A program made the translations under genes and the position numbers. Positions 15,656-34,205 of a stretch of 64,000 nucleotides of DNA are shown here, piece after piece. This DNA comes from an uncultured cyanobacterium (GTDB taxonomy: Bacteria > Cyanobacteriota > Cyanobacteriia > PCC-9006 > JAAUQQ01), in NCBI GenBank assembly GCA_963718615.1, contig OY970368.1, forward strand, positions 2,912,001 to 2,976,000, given 5' to 3'. The notes beneath the pieces are model-generated. The model was not told where the DNA came from and did not search any database. It worked only from the letters and a program-made list of their open reading frames with translations. Position 1 is the first letter of the stretch. Each line of letters opens with the position of its first letter.

Positions 15656-15693
15656 TTTGACATCCATTGGATTTAAATCGAACCGAGTTTATT

Positions 15694-16206
15694 TCAGCTG
15701 GGCAAACGGTCCATCAATTGACCAACAACCTGCTGAACCTTAATATCCAAAGCACCCCAGTCTACTTCACCATAGTCATCTAACAAGGTTTCGTCAATTT
15801 CAACCTCATCAGTTGCTTCTGAGCCAGTTGCTTCCGATGACCCCGGTACATAATTTTGAAAACAGACTTGATAGCACAACTGCCAGAGATCAAACTGTAC
15901 AAGCTGATCATCTCGGCTCAAGTTCAATCGATACGCCATCGCAGGCTCCGGCAATGCGGCTAAAGCAGCTTCTAATGCGGGCACTTCATCAGGACGGGCG
16001 CGATCGAGCTGTTGCAGAATGACATCCCGCTGCTGCTGTTGCTCCAATGTGGTTCCCTCAGGCCAAGTCGCGATATCTTCGTAGTGGCTCTGCCAATCCG
16101 ACTCGGATAGCACTTTACGAAAGTTATCCAACAGACGGATAAAGGCTGGCTGCATGAGAAGCTCAGCTTGGTGCCAAGTTTTTACATCGTTAATTTGGGG
16201 CTTCAT
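15694..16206 (-). CDS. conserved cyanobacterial hypothetical protein
   Basis: AELLMQPAFIRLLDN..., DLWQLCYQVCF, GEVDW..LD.K motifs. Confidence 0.75.
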   Translation of the reverse strand: MKPQINDVKTWHQAELLMQPAFIRLLDNFRKVLSESDWQSHYEDIATWPEGTTLEQQQQRDVILQQLDRARPDEVPALEAALAALPEPAMAYRLNLSRDDQLVQFDLWQLCYQVCFQNYVPGSSEATGSEATDEVEIDETLLDDYGEVDWGALDIKVQQVVGQLMDRLPS

Positions 16207-16352
16207 AGCGATGGATTGCGACCTTGATAGATTGAGACCTTTACCGAGACCGATTAGGCTTGATACTCGATCATACAGGGGTGATACAATTGCAAGTAAG
16301 TTTGCAGCTTAATATCTATCAACTTCATCCACTTTAGAAGAGTTGAAAAGCC

Positions 16353-18995
16353 ATGGGACGTTGCCTCAGTCTCCTGTTTTGCTTATTGTACAGTTTAAGC
16401 AACGGCCTCGTGCTGGCGACTGAGGAGCCCTCTGAGCACTCCAAGGATCAGCCCTCTGAGCAGCCCTCTGAGCAGCCCACGAAGCGCTTCTCCAACGCCC
16501 TGCTGCAAAACGGCATCCAGCGCTATCAAGCCGGACAGACTCAAGCGGCAATTGATATGTGGAAACAGGCCCTTGCAGAAACGGCACAACCCTATCAGCA
16601 GGCTCTGCTGCTCAATTACCTAGCGTTGGCCTATCAACAGCTTGGACAAGTCCAACAAGCCCAGAGCGCTTTAATCCATGCGAAAACCCTGCTCGACGGT
16701 GAGCTCGACGGTGAATTGCCCCACGGCTTCGATCAACATCAAACGGCCTCTATTCAATCCCGTCTTCTCAATACCCAAGGTCGATTATATTGGTCGCAAG
16801 GTCAGATTGAGTTGGCTCAAGCGACCTGGCAAGCTGCCCAGGAGGCCTATGGCATCGCTGAAGATCCGGAAGGTCAACTGCTAGCAACACTCAACCGAGC
16901 GCAGGCGTTGATGGCCTTGGGATTTAATCACCAAGCAGAGGTTCAACTGAGCCAGAGCTATCAGCAATTACAACGTTATGCCCCCGATAACCCTAATCTG
17001 AGCGCCACAGGACTGCAATTGCTGGGCATCGTCTTGCGGCAGGTGGGTCAGCCTCAGCGATCGCAACAGATCCTGCAAGAAAGTCTCAGCATCACGCCCC
17101 CTACAGCAGTAAATCAGCAGGCTAAAACCCTTTTGGAACTGGGGAATGGCGAACAGGTTTTAGGCACTCGCTTGAAAACCCTGGGGAAACGGACAGACTC
17201 GCAAGCAGCGACACAGCAAGCTTTACAGTTTTATCAGCAAGCGGAAACCCTCGCAACGGAGCCGCTGGTGCAATGGCAAAGTCGATTAAATCGGCTGGCG
17301 CTCCTCGTGGATACGGATAATTCGCAGGCGATCGCGATCGCCTCCACCCTCCAAACCCAGCTCCCAGCCTTTCTCGCAACCCAGCCTCCCAGCCATGCAA
17401 CGGTCCAAGCCCAGCTCAATTTGGCAGACCGCCTCATTGACCTCGGACAAAATCCGGAGCCTCTCATTCAATCCACCCTGATTCAAGCCAAAACCCTAGC
17501 GGATTCCACAGCAATTTCCTATGCCCTTGGGCAGCGGGGCGCTTGGTTGGAGCAGCAACAGCAATGGGCTCAGGCTCAATATTGGACAGAGCAAGCCCTG
17601 GTAACACTTGATCCAGTCCAAGTGCCGAGTTTACGATATCGCTGGGAGTGGCAGCTCGGGCGGTTGCTGCGACAGCAACGGAATCTACCGGGGGCGATCG
17701 CCGCCTACCAAGACGCGGTCACTAGTCTCGAAGCGGTGCGGGGAGATTTGCTGTCTATTAATCCAGAACTCCAATTTTCCTTTCGAGATGATGTAGAACC
17801 AGTCTATCGTGAGTTGGTGGGTCTACTACTCGACGAGTCCAAGGCCAAGGACGGTGCTCCCAGCCAGTCCGTGCTTAAGCAAGCCATTCAGCAGGTTGAC
17901 GCATTGCAGCTCGCAGAATTGGAGAATTTTCTAGGTTGCAAACTGGCTCGAACCGTAGCGCTCGGAGCGGTTACCGCTGATCCAAAGGCGGCTAAGCTTT
18001 ACCCCTTGATTCTGGACGATCGCCTAGCCATTATCCTTGAACCCCCCGGACAACAACCGTTGCAGTACCATGAAATTCGTGTAGAACGCCTGATAGTGCA
18101 GCAGCAACTACAACAGCTTCGGCAAGATTTGGCGGCACCGGGACGGACACCAGAGGCGATCGCAGGACTCACCACCGTCTACCAATGGCTCATCCAACCC
18201 TTTGAAGCCCAACTGACAGCCCAGAATGCCGAAACCTTGGTGTTTGTCTTGGATGGGGATCTGCGCAATATCCCCATGGCGGCCCTCTATGACGGTGAGG
18301 ATTATTTAATTAGTCGCTATGCCGTGGCCCTGTCACCTCGATTGCAGTTGTTTGATCCGAGACAGCGATCGCGCAATCTGTCGGTATTTCTCGGGGGCGT
18401 TGGTAAGCCTCAGGATTTGGCTGGGCGGAGTTTTCCGGCGATCGCCAACCTAGAACCCGAATTAGACGGTATCCGCGATCTCTTTTCCACTCCTCAACCT
18501 TTACTCAACGAATCTTTCACCAAACCTCAGCTCACTCAATCGTTATCCAGTCAATCCTTTTCAGCCATTCATCTCAAAACCCACGGCATCTTTAGCTCAG
18601 ACCCTGAAGAAACCTTTGTGGTCGCCTATGAAGGCTTGCTCACGGGGCAAGAGCTAGGGCAGTTGCTGCGGGGACGAGAAACCAAAGCAGGAACGCTCAG
18701 TCCAGTGGAACTCCTGGTATTGAGCGCCTGTTCTACGGCCCAGGGCGATAATCGGGCGGTCTTAGGAATGGCCGGATTGGCTGTCCAAGCGGGGGCGCAG
18801 AGTGTAGTTTCGACATTATGGGAAGCGCAGGATGTGCCAAATACAGCGTTGATGCTGCGCTTTTATGAGGCGTTGAAAAATCCAGCGGTGAGTCGGGCGG
18901 AGGCGTTGCGATCGGCACAGTTGTCGTTGCTGGAAGAGGGCTATACAACGCCCCATGTTTGGGCAACCTACGTGTTGGTGGGCAATTGGCTATAA
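16353..18995 (+). CDS. exported TPR-CHAT (caspase-like) protein
   Basis: N-terminal signal-like segment, TPR helices, SFRDDVEPVY, LRNIPMAAL, IHLKTHG (His), LLVLSAC (Cys), HVWATYVLVGNWL. Confidence 0.92.
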   Translation: MGRCLSLLFCLLYSLSNGLVLATEEPSEHSKDQPSEQPSEQPTKRFSNALLQNGIQRYQAGQTQAAIDMWKQALAETAQPYQQALLLNYLALAYQQLGQVQQAQSALIHAKTLLDGELDGELPHGFDQHQTASIQSRLLNTQGRLYWSQGQIELAQATWQAAQEAYGIAEDPEGQLLATLNRAQALMALGFNHQAEVQLSQSYQQLQRYAPDNPNLSATGLQLLGIVLRQVGQPQRSQQILQESLSITPPTAVNQQAKTLLELGNGEQVLGTRLKTLGKRTDSQAATQQALQFYQQAETLATEPLVQWQSRLNRLALLVDTDNSQAIAIASTLQTQLPAFLATQPPSHATVQAQLNLADRLIDLGQNPEPLIQSTLIQAKTLADSTAISYALGQRGAWLEQQQQWAQAQYWTEQALVTLDPVQVPSLRYRWEWQLGRLLRQQRNLPGAIAAYQDAVTSLEAVRGDLLSINPELQFSFRDDVEPVYRELVGLLLDESKAKDGAPSQSVLKQAIQQVDALQLAELENFLGCKLARTVALGAVTADPKAAKLYPLILDDRLAIILEPPGQQPLQYHEIRVERLIVQQQLQQLRQDLAAPGRTPEAIAGLTTVYQWLIQPFEAQLTAQNAETLVFVLDGDLRNIPMAALYDGEDYLISRYAVALSPRLQLFDPRQRSRNLSVFLGGVGKPQDLAGRSFPAIANLEPELDGIRDLFSTPQPLLNESFTKPQLTQSLSSQSFSAIHLKTHGIFSSDPEETFVVAYEGLLTGQELGQLLRGRETKAGTLSPVELLVLSACSTAQGDNRAVLGMAGLAVQAGAQSVVSTLWEAQDVPNTALMLRFYEALKNPAVSRAEALRSAQLSLLEEGYTTPHVWATYVLVGNWL

Positions 18996-19035
18996 GTGCG
19001 ATCCAGTGTAATAGATATGCCTTCTCCTGGCTAGA

Positions 19036-19236
19036 TTACGGGTTTACGCCCCTCAGTGCGAGTTCATGGATATAGCTTTGTCCTAAAAATTGAAGGCGAT
19101 CGCGATAGATACTTGACTGAGGTTGGCGATCGGGGTAATACGAATGACCTAAGAATTTCAGCTCAATTGGGGGTGAAGCAACGGCGACTCCGGCTGGGTT
19201 GATTTCGTAGCTGATTCCACGATATTTCAGAATCAT
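19036..19236 (-). CDS. DUF4278 family small protein
   Basis: MILKYRGISY start plus two further LxFLGxSY repeats. Confidence 0.75.
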   Translation of the reverse strand: MILKYRGISYEINPAGVAVASPPIELKFLGHSYYPDRQPQSSIYRDRLQFLGQSYIHELALRGVNP

Positions 19237-19317
19237 GACTGCTTTTCCTGGCTGTTGTGATAGTACTAGAGATCAAGGGCAACAGATTCAGAGATTGCTG
19301 TATTGCCCTGTAGAAGT

Positions 19318-19350
19318 CTCCTACGGCTCTCCAATAGAAATTATTCAGAT
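19318..19350 (-). promoter_or_regulatory. putative alternative-sigma promoter, copy 1 (toward the DUF4278 gene)
   Basis: Minus strand reads ATCTGAATAA-tttctattggagagc-CGTAGGAG; same boxes and 15-nt spacer as copy 2. Confidence 0.65.
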
Positions 19351-19480
19351 CAAACGGACAAAATCACTCAAAATTACTGCGATGACTGGAGTCGTTCAAG
19401 CATTTGATCTTTTCCCGAATGCTTGCTGAGCTTCACGCTTAGTCTTCCTAAAGCGGCTTATTTATCAAAATTCCATCTCT

Positions 19481-19513
19481 ATCTGAATAAACCTGTTGAG
19501 TGCTTCGTAGGAG
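19481..19513 (+). promoter_or_regulatory. putative alternative-sigma promoter, copy 2 (toward the RTX gene)
   Basis: ATCTGAATAA-acctgttgagtgctt-CGTAGGAG. Confidence 0.65.
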
Positions 19514-19609
19514 GTTGCAGAGGAGAGTGTAGCGCGCTGCTGAACGAGAACCACATCTCTACAGTTTTTCTCCTTTGATTCAACCGATTACCCCACAGGA
19601 GCAAATATC

Positions 19610-20776
19610 ATGGGAACTAAAGTTCTTGGACCTAATGACTACAATTTTTCAGCATCTAAAGAGTGGGATTACTTTCCTTATCCCAGCAAAGTCTGGAAAC
19701 CTTGGACAATTACTGGCAATGCTCGCAATAACACGCTAACGGGAGGTGAAAAAAACGACACGATTTTTGGAGGATTGGGTGACGATACCATCTTTGGTTT
19801 AGCAGGAAATGATTTGCTTTTTGGTCAAGCCGGTGACGATCGCCTATACGGGGGCAGCGGGGATGACTCGCTCTCTGGTTCGGATGGCAATGATGTGCTT
19901 GAAGGAGGAGCAGGCAACGATTATATGGATGGGGGCTCTGGCAACGACTACTATTACGTTGATTCTTTCAATGACAAAATCATTGAACTCAGCGGTTTTG
20001 GTCTCGACACCGTTGAAACCAGCCTGAGTGGCTATAACCTAGCGGCTAATGTCGAGAATTTGGTTGTTTCGCCGTTCTCCAATGGTGGAAGCTTTTTCGG
20101 CAACTATCTCGCTAACACAATGTATGGCAACGCTACTGGCAATGAACTCTACGGTATGGATGGCAATGATACTATCTTTGGCCGGGGAGGAAACGATATC
20201 CTAATTGGCGGTGCTGGCAGTGATGTTCTCTATGGCGATGACGGCAATGATCTCTTGTATGGATCTTACGATGCAGACCAGCTCTATGGAGGCGCTGGTC
20301 ATGATGTGCTGTACGGTGGCGGTGGCAATGACTACCTCGTTGCGGGGACAGGGACCGACGTTCTCTTGGGTGAGTCCGGCAATGATACTCTGGTCGGATC
20401 TGAAGGCTCAGGCTCCGCGATGCTCAATGGCTCTGCCACCGTCGCAAGCAATTACTTTGATCCGGGAGAGTTCGATACACTGATCGGTGGCATCGGATAC
20501 GATACGTTTGTTCTTGGTGGAACTTGGGGTGTTTCCTACTTTGAGAGTGGCGATGGCTATGCCACGATCCAAAACTTTGATTATTCCAGAGACAAAATCC
20601 AGGTAAAAGGAGGCTTGGGCACCTACAGTTTAGAGTTTAAGGAACTCGGCGGCGTTGGCTCTAGTGCGAAGGATACGGAGATCTACTTTACGAGCAGCAA
20701 TGGCGTAAAAGACCGGATTGGTATTGTTCAGGACACGACCAATATCAGCATCAACCGTGACTTTTTGTTTGTTTAG
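19610..20776 (+). CDS. RTX/hemolysin-type calcium-binding repeat protein
   Basis: Many GGxGxDxLx nonapeptides; AGGAG RBS; C-terminus DFLFV; no signal peptide (type I secretion-like). Confidence 0.92.
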   Translation: MGTKVLGPNDYNFSASKEWDYFPYPSKVWKPWTITGNARNNTLTGGEKNDTIFGGLGDDTIFGLAGNDLLFGQAGDDRLYGGSGDDSLSGSDGNDVLEGGAGNDYMDGGSGNDYYYVDSFNDKIIELSGFGLDTVETSLSGYNLAANVENLVVSPFSNGGSFFGNYLANTMYGNATGNELYGMDGNDTIFGRGGNDILIGGAGSDVLYGDDGNDLLYGSYDADQLYGGAGHDVLYGGGGNDYLVAGTGTDVLLGESGNDTLVGSEGSGSAMLNGSATVASNYFDPGEFDTLIGGIGYDTFVLGGTWGVSYFESGDGYATIQNFDYSRDKIQVKGGLGTYSLEFKELGGVGSSAKDTEIYFTSSNGVKDRIGIVQDTTNISINRDFLFV

Positions 20777-20811
20777 TTTGTAGTCGGTAGTCAGGGTGTC
20801 TAGAATGAGTG

Positions 20812-20840
20812 CAGGATGGGATTTTCCCATCCTGTTTCTT
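20812..20840 (+). terminator. hairpin terminator between the RTX and FHA-like genes
   Basis: caggatggga-ttt-tcccatcctg followed by tttctt. Confidence 0.7.
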
Positions 20841-20866
20841 CGGCTTGTTGTTTGGGGAGATTCAAA

Positions 20867-23800
20867 ATGATACGCGATCGCACCTCCATACACATGACCC
20901 AAAAGGTATTAAAAAGCCTTCTCTCTGGACTGCTAGCCGGAACAGAAATTTGTCTGGGAGCGCCAGTAACTGCACAAAACATCACATTAGATGGATCTTT
21001 AGGACCTGTTAGAGACTTAGGAAATGGTCCGGTCTATGAAATTCAGCAAGCGGATGGAACGACGGTTGGGGAAAATTTGTTTCATAGTTTTGGTCAATTC
21101 AATTTAAGTGTTGGTGAGAAAGCCTCGTTCCAAAGCACGCCGACCATTCAAAACATACTGACTAGAGTAACAGGTGGTTCGACTTCATCGATTGATGGAT
21201 TGATATTTACTGAAAGTCCAGCCGTCAATTTCTTTTTGATTAATCCATCAGGAATTATATTTGGACCAAATGCTCAACTTGACATTGGTGGAACAACAAG
21301 AGGGGATTTCACCGCGACAACCTTAGATGCGCTTGTATGGTCAGACGACAATCGATTTGATGCGGTGAATCCAGATGGAGCAGAGGCATTGTTGAAAATT
21401 GTGGGGGATCCGAGTGGCTTCCTAGGCTCTCAGCGGCGGATGGCAGAAATTGCTTTAGAAGGAAGTTTTTTACAAGTTTATAAGAATCAAGATTTGCGTT
21501 TCTTAGGGGGAGGAATTAACGTAGATGGAGCACTTCTGATTGCACCGTCTGGGAGAGTAGGACTCGGCTCTACAAACAACTTGGGAACAGTCTCAATCAA
21601 TCAGAACGGAAGTTTTCAATTCACGGATCAATTTGAGCGTGGAGATGTGCAGTTTAACAATGGTGCTCTAGTAGATGTAACGAGTGAAGACAAAGGGGAT
21701 ATCCAAGTCATTGGCAAGGATATCAACGTGTTAGAGGGAAGTATATTAAGGGCAGGCATCGCCAGAAACTTAGGAACAGATTTCAGTCAAGCTGGAGACA
21801 TAAAAGTAGATGCGACAGGAACAGTGAGCGTTACTGGGAACTTTAGTCAAGTCGTGAATGATGTTAGAACCGGAGCAAGCGGAAAAGGAGGAAATATTGA
21901 GATCATTGCACGAAATTTAATCGTTCAAGGAAATGGTTCACGATTAAGCACGATCTTATTTGGAACGGGAGTTGCTGGGAATGTTCAGATCAAAACTAGA
22001 GATCTTGTACTTCTTCAAGGCAGTACAAATGGACAATTTCCGGTTGGTATTACCAGCAGTGTGGAAACACTAGGAGAAGGTAAGGGAGGAAATGTAATTA
22101 TTGAAACCTCTGAGCTAAAGGTGATTGATACTGCTCAAATAGATGCTAGCACCAACGGTCAAGGGGATGCAGGAAATATTTTCATTAATGCTCGCGATCA
22201 AGTCCTTTTCAAGGATAACAGTACTGCATTTAGTCTGGTTGGAAAAGATGGAGAGGGAAAGGGAGGGGGTATCACAATCAACACAGGAGCACTAGAGGTT
22301 CGTGATGGTTCTCAACTCGTTGCATCAACTCTTGGCGTAGGAAATGCAGGAAATATTTTCATTAATACTATTGATTCAACAGAACCGATGAAAACAGGTC
22401 ATGTCCTGTTCCAGAATGGCGATGCTTTCAGTAATGTTGGGGAAACAGGTTCTGGAAGTGGTGGTAACATCGTAATTAATACCACTGAATTAGAAGTTCG
22501 CAATGGAGCTCAGCTCATTGCTAGCACCGAGGGCATTGGAAACGCAGGGAATATCCTGATTAATGCTCGCGATTTCGTCATTTTTGAAGGACGTACAATT
22601 GATGGACGATTTGGTAGTGATGCATTTAGTAGTGTGGAAAAGACGGGCATAGGAAAAGGTGGAGACATTGTAATCAATACAAACATTCTAGAAGTAAAAA
22701 ATGGGGCTCAACTAACCGCTGAAACGAAAGGACAGGGGAACGCAGGAAATATAAAATTGATAGTGAGAGATCGTGTTCTGTTTGAAGGAAGCAACACAGC
22801 TGCATTGAGCAATGTCAATAGCATAGGAAATGGTAATGGTGGTGATATTATAATTGTCACGGGTACTCTCGAAATTCTTAGGGGGGCTCAACTAATTGCG
22901 ACAACCCAAGGTGAAGGTGATGCAGGGAATATCAGTCTCGCAGTGCGCGACCGTTTACGTATTGAGGGTACAGACCCCATTCAAGGGTTTTCCAGCGGCA
23001 TTCTTACAAGTAATGCTAATCCCAATCCTAGTAAAAGTATAAGGAGCGGTGGAGATATTTCTATTACAACCCCTCAACTCCAGATTACTAATGGAGCTGT
23101 GATTGATTCTCGAACTGTTAATGATGGACCAGGGGGTGATATCACCCTTAATGTGGATGACCTAACTCTTATCGATGGTGGACAACTTCTCAGCACCAGT
23201 GACGGGAGCGGTCCCGCAGGCACTGTCCGCATCAATGCTACCAATGCTCTCCGAATTACAGGCAGCGACCCCATTTACACCGACCGCCGTGCTCAGTTCG
23301 GCAGTGCCGTTGCTTCCATCTCCGCCAACAGCGGCATCTACGTTCGCTCCACCGACACTGGAGCTGCTGGTCAGGTTATCATCGGCGACCCAAACCTTGG
23401 CACATTACCACGACTTCTATTGCTTGACGACGGTGAGATCGTTGCTGACTCTAATGCAGTAACGGGTGGCGATATCAGCCTAAATTTGGCGCAATCTTTG
23501 GTAATGCGCAACAATAGTCTCATCTCCGCTACTGCAGGACGCAGCGAGGGTGGAGGCGACGGGGGCAATATTACGATCAGCGTCCCCTTTGTACTCTCTC
23601 TTCCTGATGAAAATAGCGACATCATCGCAAACGCTTTTAGTGGTACAGGGGGCAACATTACGATCAACGCCGACGCCATCCTGAACTTTAGTCTCAACGA
23701 AGACAAGAAATCCTTCGAGCAATTGCGTCAGCAATCCACTAACGATATCAGTGCCAGCTCCCAATTCGGCAGCAACGGCACCCTCAACCTTGCTGGACTC

Positions 23801-24160
23801 AACGTAGATCCCACCCGAGGCATTAGCCAACTCCCCAGCACCGTCAGCAGCACCCAACCCAGCCAAGGCTGCCAAACCGCTAGCACCGGCCAAGCCACCT
23901 CAGCCGAATTCTTCACCACCGGACGCGGTGGCCTTCCCCCCAGTCCCAGCGATGCCCTCAGCAGCAACACCATTCTCGACGACCTACGTGTGCCATCCGA
24001 GTTCGCGGTGACAGAAGTAATTCCGACCGCTGCCTCCACTTCACGCCCCATTACCGAAGCCACCCACTGGGAAATCAACGCCCAAGGCAAAGTTATGCTT
24101 GCGGCTCAAACGGCTGCTCCAGCAAAAGTTAATCACTGCAAGTTGCTCAGTCAAGATTGA
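20867..24160 (+). CDS. filamentous haemagglutinin N-terminal (TPS) domain exoprotein
   Basis: Signal peptide ..VTA-Q, NLFHSFGQFN, RVTGG..SSIDG, INPSGIIFG (TPS domain), GxGGNIxI beta-helix repeats, C-terminal TGRGGLP..EA..W..GKV; alternative start 20894. Confidence 0.9.
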   Translation: MIRDRTSIHMTQKVLKSLLSGLLAGTEICLGAPVTAQNITLDGSLGPVRDLGNGPVYEIQQADGTTVGENLFHSFGQFNLSVGEKASFQSTPTIQNILTRVTGGSTSSIDGLIFTESPAVNFFLINPSGIIFGPNAQLDIGGTTRGDFTATTLDALVWSDDNRFDAVNPDGAEALLKIVGDPSGFLGSQRRMAEIALEGSFLQVYKNQDLRFLGGGINVDGALLIAPSGRVGLGSTNNLGTVSINQNGSFQFTDQFERGDVQFNNGALVDVTSEDKGDIQVIGKDINVLEGSILRAGIARNLGTDFSQAGDIKVDATGTVSVTGNFSQVVNDVRTGASGKGGNIEIIARNLIVQGNGSRLSTILFGTGVAGNVQIKTRDLVLLQGSTNGQFPVGITSSVETLGEGKGGNVIIETSELKVIDTAQIDASTNGQGDAGNIFINARDQVLFKDNSTAFSLVGKDGEGKGGGITINTGALEVRDGSQLVASTLGVGNAGNIFINTIDSTEPMKTGHVLFQNGDAFSNVGETGSGSGGNIVINTTELEVRNGAQLIASTEGIGNAGNILINARDFVIFEGRTIDGRFGSDAFSSVEKTGIGKGGDIVINTNILEVKNGAQLTAETKGQGNAGNIKLIVRDRVLFEGSNTAALSNVNSIGNGNGGDIIIVTGTLEILRGAQLIATTQGEGDAGNISLAVRDRLRIEGTDPIQGFSSGILTSNANPNPSKSIRSGGDISITTPQLQITNGAVIDSRTVNDGPGGDITLNVDDLTLIDGGQLLSTSDGSGPAGTVRINATNALRITGSDPIYTDRRAQFGSAVASISANSGIYVRSTDTGAAGQVIIGDPNLGTLPRLLLLDDGEIVADSNAVTGGDISLNLAQSLVMRNNSLISATAGRSEGGGDGGNITISVPFVLSLPDENSDIIANAFSGTGGNITINADAILNFSLNEDKKSFEQLRQQSTNDISASSQFGSNGTLNLAGLNVDPTRGISQLPSTVSSTQPSQGCQTASTGQATSAEFFTTGRGGLPPSPSDALSSNTILDDLRVPSEFAVTEVIPTAASTSRPITEATHWEINAQGKVMLAAQTAAPAKVNHCKLLSQD

Positions 24161-24246
24161 ATCAGAACAAGTGCCTCATTAGTTCTTTCATTACCGCTGA
24201 TCATTACCGTTGATAAAGTCCATTACCACATTATCCAGCAGTCCCT

Positions 24247-25071
24247 ATGGCAACTAATATTGAACAACAGATCCTTGTAGCCGAAGAGCGTCTTCAGAAC
24301 GCGATGCTTACTTCAGACATCAATGCTCTTGACGAGTTGATTGCCGCTGAACTCATCTTCACCAATCACCTAGGACAAGTGCTGAGCAAACAGGATGATC
24401 TCGCTCTGCATCACTCTGGAATCCTGACCTTTCATAGGCTTGAGCCCTCAGAAAGACAGATCAAAATCAATCTACCTATCGCAGTTGTTTCAGTTCGTAT
24501 GCAGGTATCGGGTCTATACAACGAGGTCCCGTTTATGGATAACCTGCGATACACACGCACTTGGTGTTTGTCGCAAAACGGTGCATGGCAGGTGGTTGCT
24601 GGCCATAGCAGTGTCGTGCAGGCCGAACCGCCGATCGCAACAACGATCGATATTGGCCTCACGCACCTTGCGCTTCCGGTTGCTGATGTTGACAAGAGTG
24701 TTCAATTTTATGCGGCCTATGCATCAATGCAGGTCATTCATCGTCGCGTCGATTCAGAAACAGGGGTGGCTGTGGTGTGGCTTTGCGATCGCACCCGCCC
24801 CTTCGTCATTGTTCTGATTCAAGCCAACCCCGTCCATCCGATTTTGTCGCCCCTAGGCCATCTCGGAATTGGGTGCGAGAGTCGGGAACAAATGGATGCA
24901 CTTTGCGCGAGGGCACAGCAAGAAGGTGTTCTGATTCAAGCGCCCAAGGAGTCTGGTTATCCCATCGGCTATTGGGCTTTTTTGCGTGATCCAGATGGTC
25001 ATACGCTAGAGCTCTCCTACGGCCAAGAAATTGGCTTGAACGTCGACAAAACTGCTGGATTGCAATGGTAA
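24247..25071 (+). CDS. NTF2-like (DUF4440) plus VOC/glyoxalase fusion protein
   Basis: N-half ..RYTRTW...WQVVAGHSS (NTF2-like); C-half GLTHLALPV.DVDKS..FY, LGHLG, FLRDPDGHTLELS (VOC). Confidence 0.8.
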   Translation: MATNIEQQILVAEERLQNAMLTSDINALDELIAAELIFTNHLGQVLSKQDDLALHHSGILTFHRLEPSERQIKINLPIAVVSVRMQVSGLYNEVPFMDNLRYTRTWCLSQNGAWQVVAGHSSVVQAEPPIATTIDIGLTHLALPVADVDKSVQFYAAYASMQVIHRRVDSETGVAVVWLCDRTRPFVIVLIQANPVHPILSPLGHLGIGCESREQMDALCARAQQEGVLIQAPKESGYPIGYWAFLRDPDGHTLELSYGQEIGLNVDKTAGLQW

Positions 25072-25095
25072 AATCGTCTACCCAATCGTCAAAAC

Positions 25096-25818
25096 TTAAG
25101 GATTATAAAATGGTGCATTGAACTGCTCGACTAACCCTAGTTGTTCTAATAGTTGATGCCAGCGATCGCGCACTTCCCCATTCTCCGGCTGGTCCTGCAA
25201 CTGCTGGACAATCGCGTCCACCTCATCATACCAAGCCGCCCCTTCCGCTCCGGATTGCATCCGCTCAATTCCCGCATCCACACTAAGTTGAACCGTGGAG
25301 TTTTCGGCAACACACTGCACCGTCAGATACCAACGGTAGGGTATGCCAGGTTGTAGGCTCACCTCAGGAGGTAGGGTCAGACGGATAAACCCTGGGCTCG
25401 GAGGTAGGGCGATCGCCTGTCGATACAACCGCTCTTTTTCATCGATTCCGGCATTCACCACAAATTCGGCTTGCCGCATTTCGGCTTGAGCCCCAGGAAC
25501 ATACACCCAAATCTTCGGCTGAGGGCTGTGAGTCGTCAGCGGATTTTGGGCCGGGACCAATGCCGATAGGACCTGTTCGGAGTTTTTGCAGGATTCACTT
25601 AAGGATCCCCCAGCTCGGGTTTGGTTAGGTCGCTGGCTTCGAGGTTTCGGGATCACGGTTCGCTGGCGGGTGGGCGTAGACTGGCCAATCTTAGATGTTC
25701 TGGATTGCGATGTTCTAGGGTGTACGGTTTGTGCAATAACTGATAGTCCAGGATAAGACCATACACTAGCCATTAAAGCCACAAGCCCTAACTTCTTCAG
25801 CCCTCTCATCCTATTCAT
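25096..25818 (-). CDS. DUF928 domain exported protein
   Basis: Signal peptide, GGSLS..C, LSALVP, P.IWVYVP, YRWYLTVQC, WYD, W..LLEQLGL. Confidence 0.85.
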   Translation of the reverse strand: MNRMRGLKKLGLVALMASVWSYPGLSVIAQTVHPRTSQSRTSKIGQSTPTRQRTVIPKPRSQRPNQTRAGGSLSESCKNSEQVLSALVPAQNPLTTHSPQPKIWVYVPGAQAEMRQAEFVVNAGIDEKERLYRQAIALPPSPGFIRLTLPPEVSLQPGIPYRWYLTVQCVAENSTVQLSVDAGIERMQSGAEGAAWYDEVDAIVQQLQDQPENGEVRDRWHQLLEQLGLVEQFNAPFYNP

Positions 25819-28297
25819 GATTAGCCTCCTGAACCTTTAAATGGGAACGTAAATCTGAACGTAAATTTGAACGCAAGCCAGAGTGCATACCTAGGCCATA
25901 GCCCAGCATCCAGCCCAGGACAGAGGGCACTAGGGGCAACCAGAGGCCCTGGGCGATCGCCCCTAAACTGACGCCATACAACACCATCACACCACCCACA
26001 CCACTCCCCCAGAGTAATGACTGAAACCGGGGTGGATTTTGTTTCGGGTCACGCTGCAAACCCTGGCCCAAACCACTGCCGAGGAAGGTCCAAGCCATAA
26101 TCCACAGCCCATCTCCCCATTGCCAATCATTCCACTGGGGCAAGGTCCAGATCAGCGGACGGCGATCGAGAACTGCGCTCAGCAACTGGCTGAGCTGATG
26201 GGCATGGACCCAAACCCCCGGCATTTCTCCGAGGGGCGTGGACAGAATATCTTGGCCCACGGGGGCTGTGGTGCCGATCAGGACGATGCGATCGCCCACG
26301 GCTCCCGCAGGCAGTTGCCCTGACAAGACTGTTTCCAAACTCACCCCTTGCCCTGGCTGTGCCCCACGATAGTTGATTAAAATTTGACTGCTTAGCCCCT
26401 CAAGCTGTTGATAGGCCCCAAAGCGGCGGGGTAGGCTCGGCAAAACGGTTTGATCCAACACCCAGTTTTCTCGATCATCGAGGCTAATCTTTCGATCTTC
26501 AGCCCCCAAAAACTCGTGGGCTAACCGCAAACTTAGCCCTTGAATCGCTGTACAGTCTGAGAGTTCGCCTAGATTGGGATCAACAGATAGGAGTTGACGA
26601 CGAATCCTATCGGGAGTGAGCCAGGAAAGGGCAGGGAAGTCCTCCTGTAAATCGCTAAACGCAAGTTGTTGGGTTTGTTGGGTGGAATCAAATTCAGGGG
26701 GCGTCGCAAAGTTAGGGTCGCTCCCCCCACTCCAGCAAACGGTGCTCAAACTGGGATGCAGTCGAAACTGTTCCAGTAATTCTGCTCGACCTTCTCCCCG
26801 AGGCTGAGCTCGATGCATGTCTAGGCCAACCGCTCGGGGCTGATCACTGTACAGTTTTTTCAGCAACTGGGCCAAGAGCTTATCTTCTAGAGGATAGCCG
26901 TAACGGAGAGTATCCGCTTGAGTCACTTCGACGACTAAGATGTGAGGATCTGTTGTTTCGGCAGGGCGCTGGCGCAGCAGCAAATCATAGGCAAAGAGTT
27001 CGAAGGGCTGTAGGAAACCTAGAAACCGTAAACCCAAGAGGAGGAGCGTGGCGATCGCTCCTCGTACAAGAGCAGGAGTGAACCGCCAGGGAAAAGCAGT
27101 CCGTACAGAAGTGAGCGCTGACTCTGTCCGTGTTGGCTCTGTCGGTGACAAAATCACGGGTCCTGAACTTGGACGCAATCGGGTCAGTACCTGCCAAGTC
27201 AGCGACATCGCCGCTGGATTTTGATGAATCACCGGTAGCCAAGAGGCACAGAGAAACTGATCTTCCAGGGCCTGAAGCTTTTCCCGTGCTTCCCGCACCG
27301 CCTTGTAAAAGGGCTGCCCTCCGGCAAAGGCCCGTAAAAAATGCTTCAGGAACGCTTGGGCCACCGGATCTGGCACAGGCTCCCGCATGACGATGAGCTG
27401 AGGCAGATTGAGCGTTGCTAAACCACGGGCTAGCCCAAGACCATCACAGGAGTTAAAAATCGCTAATTGCAGACCTCGGGCGATCGCAGCACCGAGGGCA
27501 TAGTCCAACTGCTCAATCGTTAGCGATTCGGTCGAGTTAATGGCAATTTGCCCCGTGGCATCCCCCAGGTGACTTTGACTGTGCCCCGCGAAGAAGAGAA
27601 TATCCCAGCCTGACTCAGCCCAGAGCGCCTCGTGAAGCTGCGATCGCGAGGGTTCCACCAGGAATTGGGTATCCGCCTGGGGCAGTTGGGAGAGGAGGGT
27701 GCGATCGCCTGCCACATCAATGCCGACAGAATTACCCAATATCGCTAAGATTCTCACCGTACCGGCACGAGCAACGGGTTCTGACATACCCACAGGCCGA
27801 TAGTTGAGACTCCCCAGGGCGAACTCAGCCTGGGGATAATCGCGGAAAAACAGCCATAGATGCCAGGGCAACCGCCTTGTGTTTGGACAATCGGTTTCGA
27901 GAATGAGCCGAATCGGATCTTCCGGGTTGAGGTAGAGCCGTAACTGTTGGTCAATCCGCTGGAAACCCGGCATACCCAGCCACTGATTGAGATCCCGACT
28001 TAACTGCTCCGACAACTGTTCAAACCGTTCCCGCGACACCTGATTCAGAGTATTTTCAGTCACAAGCTGAATTCTTAACCGGTCCTGGAGCGCGAGGTAA
28101 TGGGCCTGCCAGTCGCGATAGTTTTGATCAAGCTGGGGAGCCGGAGGCAGCGTGCCGCTAGCCTTCAGTCGTTGGGAGAGATGCTGATCTAAGCTAGTCT
28201 GCATCGTTACCGCCAGAAACCCTTGCTCCAAGTCTCCCCCGGACAAGGTGAGAATGACCTGTTTCTCTTGAAGGGTGGCAGGCATTCGGCTCTCCAT
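25811..28297 (-). CDS. membrane CHAT-CHASE2 protein
   Basis: N-terminal CHAT (LPWHLW, DILFFAGHS, LAIFNSCDGLG, LIVMREPVPD), TM helix, CHASE2 (ELFAYD, VGLDM, RIVLIG, GVWVHA), three C-terminal TMs; ATG overlaps upstream TGA (TGATG). Confidence 0.9.
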   Translation of the reverse strand: MESRMPATLQEKQVILTLSGGDLEQGFLAVTMQTSLDQHLSQRLKASGTLPPAPQLDQNYRDWQAHYLALQDRLRIQLVTENTLNQVSRERFEQLSEQLSRDLNQWLGMPGFQRIDQQLRLYLNPEDPIRLILETDCPNTRRLPWHLWLFFRDYPQAEFALGSLNYRPVGMSEPVARAGTVRILAILGNSVGIDVAGDRTLLSQLPQADTQFLVEPSRSQLHEALWAESGWDILFFAGHSQSHLGDATGQIAINSTESLTIEQLDYALGAAIARGLQLAIFNSCDGLGLARGLATLNLPQLIVMREPVPDPVAQAFLKHFLRAFAGGQPFYKAVREAREKLQALEDQFLCASWLPVIHQNPAAMSLTWQVLTRLRPSSGPVILSPTEPTRTESALTSVRTAFPWRFTPALVRGAIATLLLLGLRFLGFLQPFELFAYDLLLRQRPAETTDPHILVVEVTQADTLRYGYPLEDKLLAQLLKKLYSDQPRAVGLDMHRAQPRGEGRAELLEQFRLHPSLSTVCWSGGSDPNFATPPEFDSTQQTQQLAFSDLQEDFPALSWLTPDRIRRQLLSVDPNLGELSDCTAIQGLSLRLAHEFLGAEDRKISLDDRENWVLDQTVLPSLPRRFGAYQQLEGLSSQILINYRGAQPGQGVSLETVLSGQLPAGAVGDRIVLIGTTAPVGQDILSTPLGEMPGVWVHAHQLSQLLSAVLDRRPLIWTLPQWNDWQWGDGLWIMAWTFLGSGLGQGLQRDPKQNPPRFQSLLWGSGVGGVMVLYGVSLGAIAQGLWLPLVPSVLGWMLGYGLGMHSGLRSNLRSDLRSHLKVQEANHE

Positions 28298-29664
28298 CAC
28301 AAACAAAACTCTTCGATGAAAGTGAGTTGAGTCTCTTGCTCCGGCATCTGAGCAGTTTGACTATCTCCGTCAATGTCCCCGTCAATATCCCCGTCAATAT
28401 CCCCGTGAGCTTCTGGAGACTGCCACTCAACTCGCACTTGAAAGGATTCTCCAGCACTGCCTGTCAGCGGCGTGAGTTGCAGATAGGTATCTGCTGTCCC
28501 ACTTTTGATCGCTTGCAAGTCGATCGCCTGATTCGGATCGTGCAAAATTAGCTGAATTCCCGCAGGAAGATGTTGAGCTTGAAGGGGATGAAGTTGAATC
28601 TGTACCCGCAGAAGAGGAGCATCCTCAAGGATATCCAGAGCAGTTTCGCGAACAACAGAAACTAATAGGACCAAGGTTGTGATATTGTCAGTTTCGCCTA
28701 GAAAAATGCGTTTTGCCCGTTGTAGAGGCACAAGATTGGATGGACGATCGCCCCCACCGCTACGCAACTGAGAAGCGAAGGTTAACTCTGGACCCAATAC
28801 GTCTGCTAGCGATCGCCACCCCGCTTCAAACTGTCCCTCAAACCAACGACTTAACCGCGTCATCTGAGCATCCACTTGGCCAAGCCAACTCTGGCAGCGT
28901 CGCTGATACAATCGATCGCGCCAGTCTCTATCCTGTATCAAAGCCCCCCACTGGGCGAACGGCAGGCTCAAGCGAGGAAACACCAGCGTCGGATCTCCTA
29001 AGCGTTCGAGTAAATTGTCCTGCTGTATGTCCGACAACCTTGGCAAAGCCTCTAGCGCCGTCTGACTGTCTCGAATCCCGCAAAAGCGCAGCGTGGTGCT
29101 CAACGTCGTCATATCCTCCACCAAATTGGGCCGAGCCAGGGAATAGGTTCGCGTTTCCGGGTCATAATCGCCCCATTCCTTCAACTGCCGGTGGCTCCCA
29201 TAGCCCCAAACCCTCAGTCCGTAAGACTCCTCTCCTTCCTCGGTTTCACTGCAGACCTGAACCGCCAGATAATAGTGACCCATCCAATCCGGCAAATCCA
29301 CCCATTCCTGAGGCACAACCAACGTCTCTGAATCAATCTCATCACTAGGAATCACCACCAGGCGCACCCCATCACCTGCGACCCCATCACCCAAAACCTG
29401 CACCACACAACCCCCAACCCCCTCCCAAACCGCAGGCCAATCCGACAGCGGTAAACCGGGCCGAACTGCCCCCATCCCCCCCACCTTGAGCTCCGCCAAC
29501 CCCGGCACCAACCCCACCAAACACAACTGACCTAGATAATCATCCCAGCACCGTCCTGGCTGGCAATGGCGTTGGCTTTGCTGCCAACTGGCCTGGACTA
29601 GGGCGGAATCCAGGGGAATCCACCAATTTCGGACATCAGCCAATAACTCCGCCAACAGCGCCAT
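28297..29664 (-). CDS. DUF1822 family protein (candidate anti-sigma/protease substrate)
   Basis: LVVPQEWVDLPDW..HYYLAVQV, VWGY..H..LK, LSRWFEGQFEAGW..L, C-terminal E.F.L. Confidence 0.85.
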   Translation of the reverse strand: MALLAELLADVRNWWIPLDSALVQASWQQSQRHCQPGRCWDDYLGQLCLVGLVPGLAELKVGGMGAVRPGLPLSDWPAVWEGVGGCVVQVLGDGVAGDGVRLVVIPSDEIDSETLVVPQEWVDLPDWMGHYYLAVQVCSETEEGEESYGLRVWGYGSHRQLKEWGDYDPETRTYSLARPNLVEDMTTLSTTLRFCGIRDSQTALEALPRLSDIQQDNLLERLGDPTLVFPRLSLPFAQWGALIQDRDWRDRLYQRRCQSWLGQVDAQMTRLSRWFEGQFEAGWRSLADVLGPELTFASQLRSGGGDRPSNLVPLQRAKRIFLGETDNITTLVLLVSVVRETALDILEDAPLLRVQIQLHPLQAQHLPAGIQLILHDPNQAIDLQAIKSGTADTYLQLTPLTGSAGESFQVRVEWQSPEAHGDIDGDIDGDIDGDSQTAQMPEQETQLTFIEEFCL

Positions 29665-29673
29665 AAATCCCCC

Positions 29674-30967
29674 TCATTCCCTCTCGTTTGAATCCTCGTT
29701 TGAATCCTCGTTTGAACCCTGGTGTGAGCCATAGTGCAGCATTAACCAAGCCTCGATCGCGTCACCTTGCTGACGTATACGATCTGGGTCCGGGACAATA
29801 TTCAATGACTGCTGACTCCAAACCACAAGTGCGCTTAGCAACGCTTCCCTGGCCCGGAGCAAATAGCGCGCCACCGAGGGTTGAGAACAGCCCATCTGCT
29901 TGGCGATCTGAGATTGAATTAAACCCTGACGATAGTACAGCTCCAGTACCCTTTTCCAGTCGGGTTTAAGGGTGGGAATAGCCTGTTCTAGGACTTGATA
30001 GAGCTGCGATCGCTGCTGCCGTCGTTCGTTCAGCTCCTCCTGAGCAATCAAATTCGTTAACAACGAAGGACTCCCCATAGATCCTTCCAGGGGGAATGCT
30101 GCGAGCGGGATCCGCGACCCGCTCCAAACGCTCTTCTCCCTCCTCGCCAAACTGCATTTGATTGAGCGATTGAACCGGAGGATAAAGATAGTTCCGCAAC
30201 CAACGGGCCGTTTGGGCTAGCCATTGTTCGAGTTGCTGGGGCGTTGCTCGGGGTTGCTCGGGGGATTGGGTTTGGTTGTAGGCTTGGGCGATCGCCTGCC
30301 AATCTTCTGGAGCGGGAGCTACCTGCCGTTTTGTTCCTCCCGGTCCCGGTCCAATCACCCACCCCTCTCGGAAGCAGAGCCAAGCCCACAGATAACGCTG
30401 TTGAAGACTGGGAGAAAGAGATTGTTGATTGAAGGTTTCTTGCAACCGTTTGCGGCTCGTTCGTCGCAATAGGGACCAGTCGCTACAAACATCTAAGGCC
30501 TTTTGCTGTCGCACCGCATCCTTAAGTCGATGGGTAAATGCCAGCTCGGCATAGGTCTCTAAATTGGCACCCCGATCCGGTGAAAACCCCGCAAGAACTT
30601 TCGGAAACTGGGATTGAGCAATCTGAAAATAGTCCGCTAGGGTTTGATACGAAACCGTTACAAACTGTGCCATTTTTTGATGAAACCGATAGCTAGCCCA
30701 GTAGCAGGACTCTTGAACATAGGCGAGCAGATGTTGGGATGGCGTGACGGGGGATGGGGTAGCGGGGGATGAAGACTGGATCTGCTGCCGATACTGCTTA
30801 TACCAGTAATGCTCCCAGGCGATTTTGGCAGTTTGTTGGGGTTGGAGCTGCAACGCTTGTACCATTTTCCGTTTGAGCATTGGATCCCGGCTCCACCGGC
30901 TGGCGGTCCCGGCTTCGAGCTGAAGGAACGTTGAAAAGAGATCAACGAGGTCTTGCCGAGGGCGCAT
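29674..30967 (-). pseudogene. HetZ-related sigma-70 family sigma factor split by a +1 frameshift (ORFs 29966-30967 and 29674-30150)
   Basis: N-part MRPRQDLVDLFSTF..HLLAYVQESCYW..F.PDRGANL..YA..CSDWSLL; region-4 HTH (LELYYRQGLIQSQIA..SQPSVARYL) is in a different frame; removing one base near the C5 tract (30090-30094) gives one 430-aa ORF. Confidence 0.8.
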
Positions 30968-31063
30968 AGGAGAAAATTAGCCAATCAAAACAACAGACGG
31001 GGATTCCACAACGGTCATCTAAATCGGATTTAGCACAACCTCAGTTTAATGATACGATCGCCA

Positions 31064-31216
31064 ACAAGCTAGGGGTGCTCAATTCGGAGGCGCTAAACGT
31101 CAACCTTGCCGCAGACTGTGTGGTTTCGGGCCGTGACGCTTAACAATTCTTCGAACTGAGCTGAGATTACACCCTGAGAACCTGAGACTGGTTAGCACCA
31201 GCGGAGGGAAGCGTTA
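31064..31216 (+). ncRNA. TPP riboswitch with long P3
   Basis: AGGGGTGC...GCTGAGA-TTACACCC-TGAGAACCTGAGACTGGTTAGCACCAGCGGAGGGAAGC core, upstream of a transporter and thiC. Confidence 0.95.
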
Positions 31217-31234
31217 ATTAGAGGTACAGAAAAC

Positions 31235-34205
<2,971 letters not shown>

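Follow-up and report, generated by a model that had tools for sequence, protein, structure and literature searches.

RpoE and RseA form a classical pair of a sigma factor with extracytoplasmic function (ECF) and an anti-sigma factor, in which release is brought about by regulated proteolysis. In the Craspase of type III-E CRISPR, the TPR-CHAT protein Csx29 cleaves Csx30 and frees an RpoE-like sigma factor, and Anabaena possesses HetF, a protease of the CHAT family. The closest described systems were predicted computationally (Kaur et al. 2021, eLife, PMC8195603). In the part of that paper concerned with them, caspase proteins with a constant N-terminal domain (EACC2) and variable C-termini, including CHASE2 with transmembrane helices, are reported as neighbors of an ECF sigma factor and DUF1822; a stimulus is proposed to induce autopeptidase activation, the coupled sigma factor is proposed to mediate transcription, and the systems are placed among the apoptosis-like conflict systems. 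In the relevant part of a review on cyanobacterial orthocaspases, membrane orthocaspases that bear CHASE2 are sketched as death receptors, and a Tolypothrix genome paper lists DUF1822 genes in passing among strain differences. No experimental study of the cassette was found in full-text literature searches. Here we describe a stretch of 64,000 nucleotides from an uncultured cyanobacterium (contig OY970368.1 of GCA_963718615.1, positions 2,912,001 to 2,976,000; hereafter, the window), and in particular its part at 16353–30967. This part carries a minus-strand operon that encodes, in order, a sigma factor, a DUF1822 protein, a membrane protein with a CHAT caspase and a CHASE2 domain (the sensor), and a DUF928 protein. 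The operon is a typical member of the caspase, ECF sigma and DUF1822 systems predicted in 2021. A first-pass annotation of the window had stated that no mechanistic description of such a cascade was known; this statement has to be withdrawn in view of the account of Kaur et al., a computational prediction though it is.

The likeness to the predicted systems extends to both composition and logic: a CHAT caspase with His and Cys, a variable C-terminal sensor, which is CHASE2 here, and a sigma factor and DUF1822 directly upstream are united in one operon, and the proposed course leads from a stimulus through protease activation to sigma-driven transcription. Two differences were found. In the passages concerned, the paper calls DUF1822 a TPR protein, whereas the model obtained here consists of alpha/beta nuclease-like, helical and beta-sandwich parts. 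In addition, DUF928 and the exported CHAT and TpsA neighbors described below are unmentioned in the passages of section 9 concerned, although its Figure 3H and supplements may hold more.

The families were assigned by Pfam scans of the program-listed open reading frames (ORFs). These scans, the ORF ends, and direct reading of the sequence bore out the operon and the tight junctions reported in the first-pass annotation. The sigma and DUF1822 genes are separated by a 9-nt gap (29665–29673) and the sensor and DUF928 genes overlap by 8 nt (25811–25818), both as judged from the ORF ends, and the junction between DUF1822 and the sensor is a TGATG read directly in the sequence (28299–28295). The sensor starts at the ATG within this TGATG, at 28297, with a TTG at 28306 as an alternative upstream start (ORF 25811–28306). 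His242 (DILFFAGHS) and Cys287 (AIFNSCDG) of the sensor are invariant in the five CHAT-sensor paralogs of the same genome. The corresponding motifs of the TPR-CHAT protein encoded by the facing genes, HLKTHG and LSACSTAQG, were assigned by eye from the translation, so that both CHAT domains keep the catalytic motifs, as had been claimed. According to a crude hydropathy scan, which was used for topology and export signals in the window, a transmembrane segment lies at about 411–435 between the caspase and CHASE2, and further ones lie at the C-terminus. Because this segment separates the two domains, the caspase should be cytoplasmic and CHASE2 periplasmic. In all five paralogs, the caspase follows a conserved module of about 170–200 amino acids (aa) that carries an RLPWHxWE motif, a candidate counterpart of EACC2. 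A local hidden Markov model (HMM) of the N-terminal 400 aa of the sensor matches 80 of the 80 relatives introduced below.

Seven DUF1822 loci are present in the genome, which is a single contig of 6.10 Mb. Four of them, namely, those in the window and at L011, L013 and L014, have a sigma or sigma-like gene followed by DUF1822 and then by CHAT-CHASE2, and DUF928 is recognized by Pfam beside three of the four cassettes. At L011, the full cassette with a Pfam-recognized sigma gene is followed by two DUF928 genes, an exported CHAT gene and a TpsB gene. L013 and L014 carry full cassettes with CHAT-CHASE2, in which the upstream gene is sigma-like by alignment only; the 248-aa gene after the L014 sensor was not identified as DUF928 (hhalign probability 4%). 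At L012, the caspase that accompanies DUF1822 carries a periplasmic-binding-protein domain (Peripla_BP_6) in place of CHASE2, and DUF928 is absent. Together with the minus-strand operon, the genome thus has at least four paralogous cassettes of sigma, DUF1822 and caspase-CHASE2, and sigma, DUF1822, caspase-CHASE2 and DUF928 combine as modules. The families concerned are numerous in this genome: about 49 CHAT, 16 DUF928, about 24 two-partner-secretion (TPS) domain and 19 CHASE2 genes, and 105 RTX-repeat matches.

The occurrence of the cassette in other cyanobacteria was examined with an alignment of the CHAT-CHASE2 paralogs as the query; an alignment of the DUF1822 paralogs offered no stretch conserved enough for such a locus search. 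The best 80 of more than 597 candidates were used, which are full-length CHAT-CHASE2 relatives with 37–49% identity from many cyanobacterial genera, and their neighboring ORFs were labeled by BLAST against the paralogs of the present genome. The denominators below are the loci with enough flanking DNA; related genomes are not independent, and the counts describe a pattern rather than a test. In 62 of 75 loci, DUF1822 immediately precedes the sensor on the same strand (71 of 75 when its place in the locus is disregarded); sigma immediately precedes DUF1822 in 53 of 70 (anywhere, 61 of 70), and DUF928 immediately follows the sensor in 45 of 71 (anywhere, 55 of 71). Among the 37 fully flanked loci (at least 9 kb on both sides), the flanks contain a large CHAT gene in 22, a TpsA-like gene in 17, an RTX gene in 9, a TpsB gene in 1, and a large CHAT or TpsA gene in 26. 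Local HMMs run over all 80 loci found DUF1822 in 74, DUF928 in 61, CHAT in 29 and TPS in 28. None of these families occurred in 20 control windows, each placed 100 kb from a DUF928 gene in other genomes. Thus, the conserved linkage of sigma, DUF1822, CHAT-CHASE2 and DUF928 supposed in the first-pass annotation is observed as direct adjacency in other cyanobacteria, and the association of the operon with exported CHAT and TpsA genes is likewise found there (26 of the 37 loci with full flanks, as opposed to none of the 20 control windows).

The constant core of the cassette is the sigma–DUF1822 pair. DUF1822 was matched in 211 of the 301 genomes of the phylum (E ≤ 0.001), many of these matches being weak and coming from small genomes of one family, and sigma is directly upstream of DUF1822 in 29 of the 30 best-scoring loci, which represent 30 genomes. 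Longer sigmas go with longer DUF1822 proteins (Spearman 0.83, n = 54; the sequences are related and not independent). In the short class, sigma-like proteins of 167–321 aa accompany DUF1822 proteins of 309–367 aa; in the long class, to which the window belongs, sigmas of 395–558 aa accompany DUF1822 proteins of 372–436 aa. Sigma region 4 was recognized by Pfam in 28 of the 54 proteins upstream of DUF1822.

The sigma factor itself is of a long cyanobacterial class, about 400–550 aa elsewhere. Its ECF-like regions 2 and 4 are matched by the sigma70-ECF superfamily model TIGR02937 (NCBIfam), which spans both, and the alignment of paralogs together with this model places an N-terminal extension of about 80–100 aa before them and an insert of about 100 aa between them. 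The compact ECF build (about 170–220 aa, no long extensions) is not that of this sigma, the read-through length of which is 430 aa, and none of the NCBIfam models of specific ECF subgroups reaches its cut-off for it.

Anti-sigma factors contact both sigma domains. A complex of sigma with DUF1822 was predicted for the pair at L045, the sensor of which is the closest relative of that in the window (49% identity) and the sigma ortholog of which is intact (TIGR02937 106.8 bits against a cut-off of 42.9, model positions 4–165). The complex score was 0.86 (0.87, 0.86 and 0.85 in the three runs), and the best of three controls scored 0.00. As a yardstick, rough since alignments made for the present analysis were used in the prediction, the mark of 0.86 is reached by 58 of 80 solved complexes and by 2 of 110 mismatched pairs. 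The three runs share at least 90% of their contacts, and the partner has a predicted local distance difference test (pLDDT) value of at least 83. On the sigma side, the predicted interface comprises residues 106–236 (region 2 and the following strand, 169–177) and 337–397 (region 4 and the C-terminal helix); on the DUF1822 side, it comprises residues 1–216, and the C-terminal sandwich stays free. Recall of a solved complex is unlikely because no solved structure in the PDB matches the DUF1822 model in Foldseek at E ≤ 0.001. DUF1822 is therefore predicted to clamp sigma regions 2 and 4 in the manner of an anti-sigma factor, by means of a domain without a known anti-sigma fold. The interaction of sigma with DUF1822 that the first-pass annotation had assumed gains support from this prediction, in which the L045 pair and the controls are cleanly separated.

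Compared with RpoE–RseA, the present pair is similar in that a sigma factor possessing regions 2 and 4 shares its operon with a partner predicted to contact both, and in that a proteolytic release following an envelope signal is proposed. It differs in that the partner is soluble and has no recognizable anti-sigma domain, in that the sensor and the protease form one separate caspase-fold membrane protein, and in that the sigma carries the N-terminal extension and the insert. The Craspase likeness is that a CHAT protease would serve to set a sigma factor free from the protein that binds it; however, the trigger here would be a periplasmic sensor, whereas that of Craspase is target RNA. HetF is likewise a regulatory protease of the CHAT family from a cyanobacterium. 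Both parallels, that to Craspase and that to HetF, are no more than analogies: type III-E Craspase membership was rejected (NF041236, 22.3 bits against a cut-off of 100; no CRISPR-associated family among the 52 window ORFs scanned with Pfam), and so was HetF orthology (NF045509, 22.5 bits against a cut-off of 1200, the caspase core only being matched).

The AlphaFold2 model of DUF1822 (61 aligned sequences; mean pLDDT 85.4) consists of an alpha/beta N-terminal domain (about 14–199), a helical middle and a C-terminal beta-sandwich (about 313–455); on this model, DUF1822 is not a TPR protein. In VIA-align, the N-terminal domain resembles PD-(D/E)XK nucleases with Z values of 5.5–7.0, a range that the tool calls common: D212 (Z 7.0, 138 aligned residues), DpnI (6.5, 143), Hjc (6.4, 117), I-Ssp6803I (6.3, 120) and NhoI (5.5, 120). 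The C-terminal domain resembles Ig-like sandwiches. One further match comes from the anti-sigma factor RsgI4, but to its sensor domain, a beta-sandwich, rather than to the part that binds sigma. No invariant acidic/lysine triad is present in the DUF1822 alignment. All VIA-align Z values stay below 8, and the nuclease likeness, like the MtxA likeness of DUF928 treated below, is a lead only. Arg301 of DUF1822 (window numbering) is kept in 59 of the 61 aligned sequences; a loop of 6–74 residues, for which the pLDDT is below 50, comes next, and a conserved R-A-K-L-I-D-L-G block comes after the loop. Since cyanobacterial orthocaspases cut after basic residues, R301 is a candidate caspase cleavage site worth testing. 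As a separate observation, residues of about 420–445 in the window copy form a lineage-specific acidic repeat (GDID, several copies) before the last strand, in a part of low model confidence.

Taken as a whole, the locus is best explained as a cassette of the type of Kaur et al., with DUF1822 as an anti-sigma-like clamp, a CHASE2-triggered caspase and release of the sigma factor, a reading to which we give an even chance. In this scheme, the sigma factor and DUF1822 would form a cytoplasmic pair, in which the nuclease-like N-terminal domain is predicted to clamp regions 2 and 4. The membrane protein would read a periplasmic cue through CHASE2, with the exported DUF928 protein, judged from gene linkage, as the likely partner or ligand source. 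The cue would then activate the cytoplasmic His/Cys caspase, whereupon DUF1822, possibly at R301, or the sensor itself would be cut and the sigma factor released. The exported TPR-CHAT and TpsA-like proteins would constitute an associated extracellular protease module, which may act on DUF928.

Several observations weigh against this explanation. The CHAT sensor is directly downstream in only 4 of the 30 top DUF1822 loci (1.5-kb flanks), and hence the caspase is dispensable for the sigma–DUF1822 pair; likewise, two sigma–DUF1822 pairs of the same genome (L009 and L010) have no caspase. Conversely, two CHAT-CHASE2 and DUF928 pairs of this genome (L125 and L126) have neither sigma nor DUF1822, and hence DUF1822 cannot be the only substrate of the caspase. 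DUF1822 shows no likeness to known anti-sigma domains in Foldseek or VIA-align, and the complex was predicted for the orthologous L045 pair, the DUF1822 of which is 35% identical to that of the window. In the short class, two upstream proteins of this genome have no significant sigma match, and the alignment of the long with the short class by hhalign gives a probability of 0.9%, by which the short-class upstream proteins are not established as sigmas. A 6-mer count over the 37 regions upstream of sigma genes yielded AT-rich words only and no clear motif, and no RNA runs carrying the locus are listed among the public sequencing runs. Finally, the sigma gene of the window is broken as assembled. 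Apart from these points, an IS110-family transposase gene was seen just downstream of the caspase-less pair at L010 (11735–13000 of that locus, plus strand; about 2.245 Mb in the genome), and an insertion could have deleted the remainder of the L010 cassette or moved it elsewhere.

The pairs at L125 and L126 bear on a second explanation, autoproteolysis, the proposal found in print in the part of PMC8195603 referred to above: the caspase would cut its own sensor and free the N-terminal module, which would act on the sigma pair or other targets, with DUF1822 as an adaptor. These pairs imply that the caspase must have an output other than DUF1822, and the retention of the N-terminal module in all 80 relatives (local HMM) agrees with such a role. 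However, no self-cleavage site was identified in the sensor, and the position of DUF1822 between the sigma and caspase genes (62 of 75 loci) is left unexplained. We regard autoproteolysis as unlikely.

The broken sigma gene deserves closer attention. TIGR02937 is split exactly across two frames: residues 80–191 of frame A correspond to model positions 2–86, and residues 29–108 of frame B to positions 86–165. With a local sigma HMM of 414 positions, built from 36 long-class sigmas, frame A covers positions 3–287 and frame B (ORF 29674–30150, open back to 30216) positions 288–407. Without the base at 30103, the sigma frame encodes 430 aa and covers positions 3–407 of the 414. The need for frame repair noticed in the first-pass annotation is thus confirmed and traced to one extra base. 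Public DNA runs matching the locus cover parts of the stretch only. Two contigs from such runs, belonging to two different studies, both have one base fewer at 30103; apart from this, one has no difference over 151 bases and the other has 1 over 236 bases, and their depth is below 3 in both, with mutual agreement. Near-identical relatives from the environment thus have an intact sigma gene. The extra base has arisen either by mutation in the sequenced strain, where the cassette would then be inactive, or through a sequencing or assembly error. It is conceivable that the sequenced strain carries a decaying, non-functional pseudogene copy that is redundant with the paralogous cassettes, in line with the lesion being outside a homopolymer run and with at least three other sigma–DUF1822–CHAT-CHASE2 cassettes in the genome. 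Nevertheless, the lesion is single, the other operon genes are open with their motifs intact, the contigs of the two studies carry the intact frame, and an assembly error is possible; on balance, decay is a possibility that we lean against, though less strongly than against any of the other alternatives to the clamp-and-release cassette.

The features of the studied part are listed in Table 1. The plus-strand genes and the minus-strand operon converge tail to tail (ends at 25071 and 25096). Elsewhere, the window has the character of an ordinary cyanobacterial chromosome, including genes of thiamine, haem and chlorophyll, and the Pfam scans of the window found neither mobile-element nor defense-island surroundings at the locus.

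Table 1. Features in the studied part of the window, in order of position
Feature	Positions	Strand	Properties
TPR-CHAT	16353–18995	+	880 aa; TPR plus Pfam CHAT positions 4–289 of 289, E 2.4e-52
DUF4278-like small ORF	19036–19236	-	66 aa; PF14105 E 4.1e-5, 24.3 bits against a cut-off of 25.3
Small ORF without family	19235–19429	+	64 aa; no Pfam match
RTX-repeat protein	19610–20776	+	388 aa; Pfam HemolysinCabind E 7e-64; no signal peptide
TpsA-like two-partner-secretion passenger	20816–24160	+	1114 aa; Pfam TPS E 1.5e-38; TIGR01901 66.8 bits
DUF4440-glyoxalase protein	24247–25071	+	appears unrelated to the operon
DUF928 exported protein	25096–25818	-	240 aa; Pfam E 4e-32; signal-like N-terminus
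CHAT-CHASE2 membrane caspase sensor	25811–28299	-	Pfam CHAT E 1.8e-13; CHASE2 E 9.6e-51, residues 419–743
DUF1822 protein	28297–29664	-	455 aa; Pfam E 2.3e-52
Sigma-70-family factor, two frames	29674–30967	-	region 2 in 29966–30967; region 4 in 29674–30216 (Pfam E 1.2e-10 for ORF 29674–30150)
Extra base breaking the sigma frame	30103		outside any homopolymer run

The exported TPR-CHAT, RTX and TpsA-like genes said to face the operon were recovered by Pfam. The TPR-CHAT protein has an N-terminal signal-like hydrophobic segment, and the TpsA-like protein has a long leader. A hydrophobic N-terminal stretch was also found in 21 of the 22 full-length large CHAT neighbors in other loci, the exception being cut by a contig end. 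Several proteins are TPS-CHAT fusions with a TPS domain and a C-terminal CHAT (those of this genome have 1326–1945 aa), which indicates that some CHAT proteases are passengers of two-partner secretion. The TPR-CHAT and TpsA-like genes of the window fit this recurring extracellular module. No TpsB (ShlB-type) gene is present in the window, and about 24 TPS genes share only 3 of them genome-wide; thus, the transporter of the TpsA-like protein would have to act from a distance.

The first-pass annotation had gone further and supposed a full cascade, in which a cue from TpsA, TPR-CHAT or DUF928 is sensed by CHASE2, the CHAT domain cleaves DUF1822, and the sigma factor transcribes the RTX and DUF4278 genes. 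All the linkage and complex evidence for the clamp-and-release cassette applies to this version as well, and RTX genes occur near sigma, several of them divergent, at a number of loci including L045, L049, L055, L058, L059, L068 and L105. However, RTX genes were found within 10 kb in only 9 of the 37 fully flanked loci, and the 105 RTX-repeat matches over many genes of this genome make a high background. A DUF4278-like ORF does exist, as the annotation had it, but it is on the minus strand, the opposite one to the RTX gene, and scores under the Pfam family cut-off. Since the two gene groups of the window converge, they have no shared promoter region, and no common promoter motif was found; a promoter and terminator scan of 15600–31400 gave 12 sites against a mean of 12.3 in shuffled sequence. 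RTX and DUF4278 as targets of the sigma factor are thus not borne out, and the full cascade appears quite unlikely. A second RTX-repeat protein of 432 aa is encoded at 46594–47892 (minus strand), 16 kb off the operon, between cobalt-transport and acetyltransferase genes.

The last member of the operon, DUF928, accompanies CHASE2 sensors whatever their output domain, and this adjacency is shown here to be general. In this genome, 10 of the 16 DUF928 genes are located within 3 kb of a CHASE2 gene, as compared with 2% for random points. Outside the window, DUF928 is found beside CHASE2 proteins whose output is a histidine kinase (L127), an adenylate cyclase (L129), GGDEF-EAL (L130) or GGDEF (L128 and L131, both with the strand order exported CHAT, DUF928, CHASE2-GGDEF); the loci L127–L131 are at about 1.70, 2.06, 2.20, 2.39 and 4.92 Mb. 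DUF928 occurs in 53 of the 61 genomes of the class. One DUF928 locus was taken from each of 40 genomes (best match at least 6 kb from the contig start), leaving the other 12 genomes besides the present one unsampled. Within 6 kb of DUF928, these loci contain a CHASE2 gene in 23 of the 40 (20 without and 3 with a caspase domain), a large CHAT gene in 11 and a TPS gene in 8. In 20 of the 40 genomes, control windows 100 kb away gave 0, and the matched 20 test loci included 11 with CHASE2 (Fisher p = 1.5e-4). A literature search on DUF928 turned up one paper, in which a single CHASE2-DUF928 cluster of one Nostoc genome is mentioned and regarded as species-specific. DUF928 is also frequently found near exported proteases: for 11 of the 16 genes in this genome, a strong CHAT gene is no more than 10 kb away (random, 9.5%), and for 8 no more than 1.6 kb, and 9 of the 16 have a TPS gene within 10 kb (random, 6.8%).

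The DUF928 protein has an N-terminal signal-like hydrophobic segment. In its model (pLDDT 78.7), an N-terminal part that is disordered and rich in proline is followed by a beta-sandwich and a helical hairpin. No PDB entry was matched by Foldseek at E ≤ 0.001, and the structural matches in Foldseek and VIA-align are generic FN3- or Ig-like domains. Among the best matches is the C-terminal domain of MtxA (PDB 4Z29), the match extending over the sandwich as well as the helices (VIA-align Z 7.4, rmsd 4.0, 130 residues; Foldseek E 2.2e-3). MtxA of magnetotactic bacteria is exported, and its gene precedes a CHASE2 adenylate cyclase gene, according to the relevant part of PMC4439547; DUF928 is like it in the signal peptide, the export and the gene position directly beside a CHASE2 sensor gene. 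On the other hand, MtxA is not found by the DUF928 profile among PDB sequences, and the Z value is in the range that the tool calls common, so that the likeness does not establish homology. As an observation apart from the fold, more than 90% of 52 sequences have a G-S-R-G-x-C motif before the folded domain, the Arg of which corresponds to residue 73; this residue is Leu in the window copy and its closest relative (L046).

These findings bear on a further explanation, a cell-death or immunity device, in which the caspase would degrade many proteins after an envelope attack, such as one by CHAT or TpsA proteins secreted by a neighbor, DUF928 would be a periplasmic guard or immunity protein, and the sigma pair would only tune expression. 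The position of DUF928 directly beside exported CHAT genes, half of the DUF928 genes of this genome being within 1.6 kb of one, is that of the immunity genes in contact-dependent inhibition systems. The heavy expansion of the CHAT, DUF928 and TPS families in the genome and the existence of TPS-CHAT fusions are in keeping with such a device, as is the classification as apoptosis-like conflict systems in the part of Kaur et al. cited. However, DUF928 is found beside kinase, cyclase and GGDEF-output CHASE2 sensors without a nearby protease (L127, L129 and L130), which fits a signaling partner better than an immunity protein, and the surroundings are those of an ordinary chromosome with no mobile-element or defense-island context. 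Thus, this device seems to us very unlikely, and the least probable of the explanations considered. Uma2-family genes with a putative restriction-endonuclease fold were seen in the window (54898–55614, minus strand) and at L126 (4129–4725, plus strand), the latter near the CHAT-CHASE2 and DUF928 pair; because this family is abundant in cyanobacteria, the proximity is probably a coincidence.

A more specific role may be considered within the clamp-and-release reading. DUF928 might be a dedicated periplasmic partner of CHASE2, that is, a ligand, pro-ligand or co-receptor, on which exported CHAT proteases (Sec-exported TPR-CHAT proteins and TpsA-CHAT fusions) would act; this suggestion is tentative, and we rate it as rather doubtful in its entirety. 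To our knowledge, no ligand or partner of CHASE2 has been identified since the domain was defined in 2003; a 2026 paper concerns CHASE2 adenylate cyclases and cytokinin perception. If the suggestion is true, the locus would represent an envelope-spanning protease relay, in which an outer caspase-like protease processes DUF928, CHASE2 reads the result, and the cytoplasmic caspase frees the sigma factor from DUF1822. The sigma–DUF1822 pair, for its part, is widespread in cyanobacteria as a putative two-gene switch, for which the caspase sensor is only one of the possible inputs. A conserved exported DUF928 protein would link second-messenger, kinase and caspase signaling in filamentous cyanobacteria to a shared periplasmic component.

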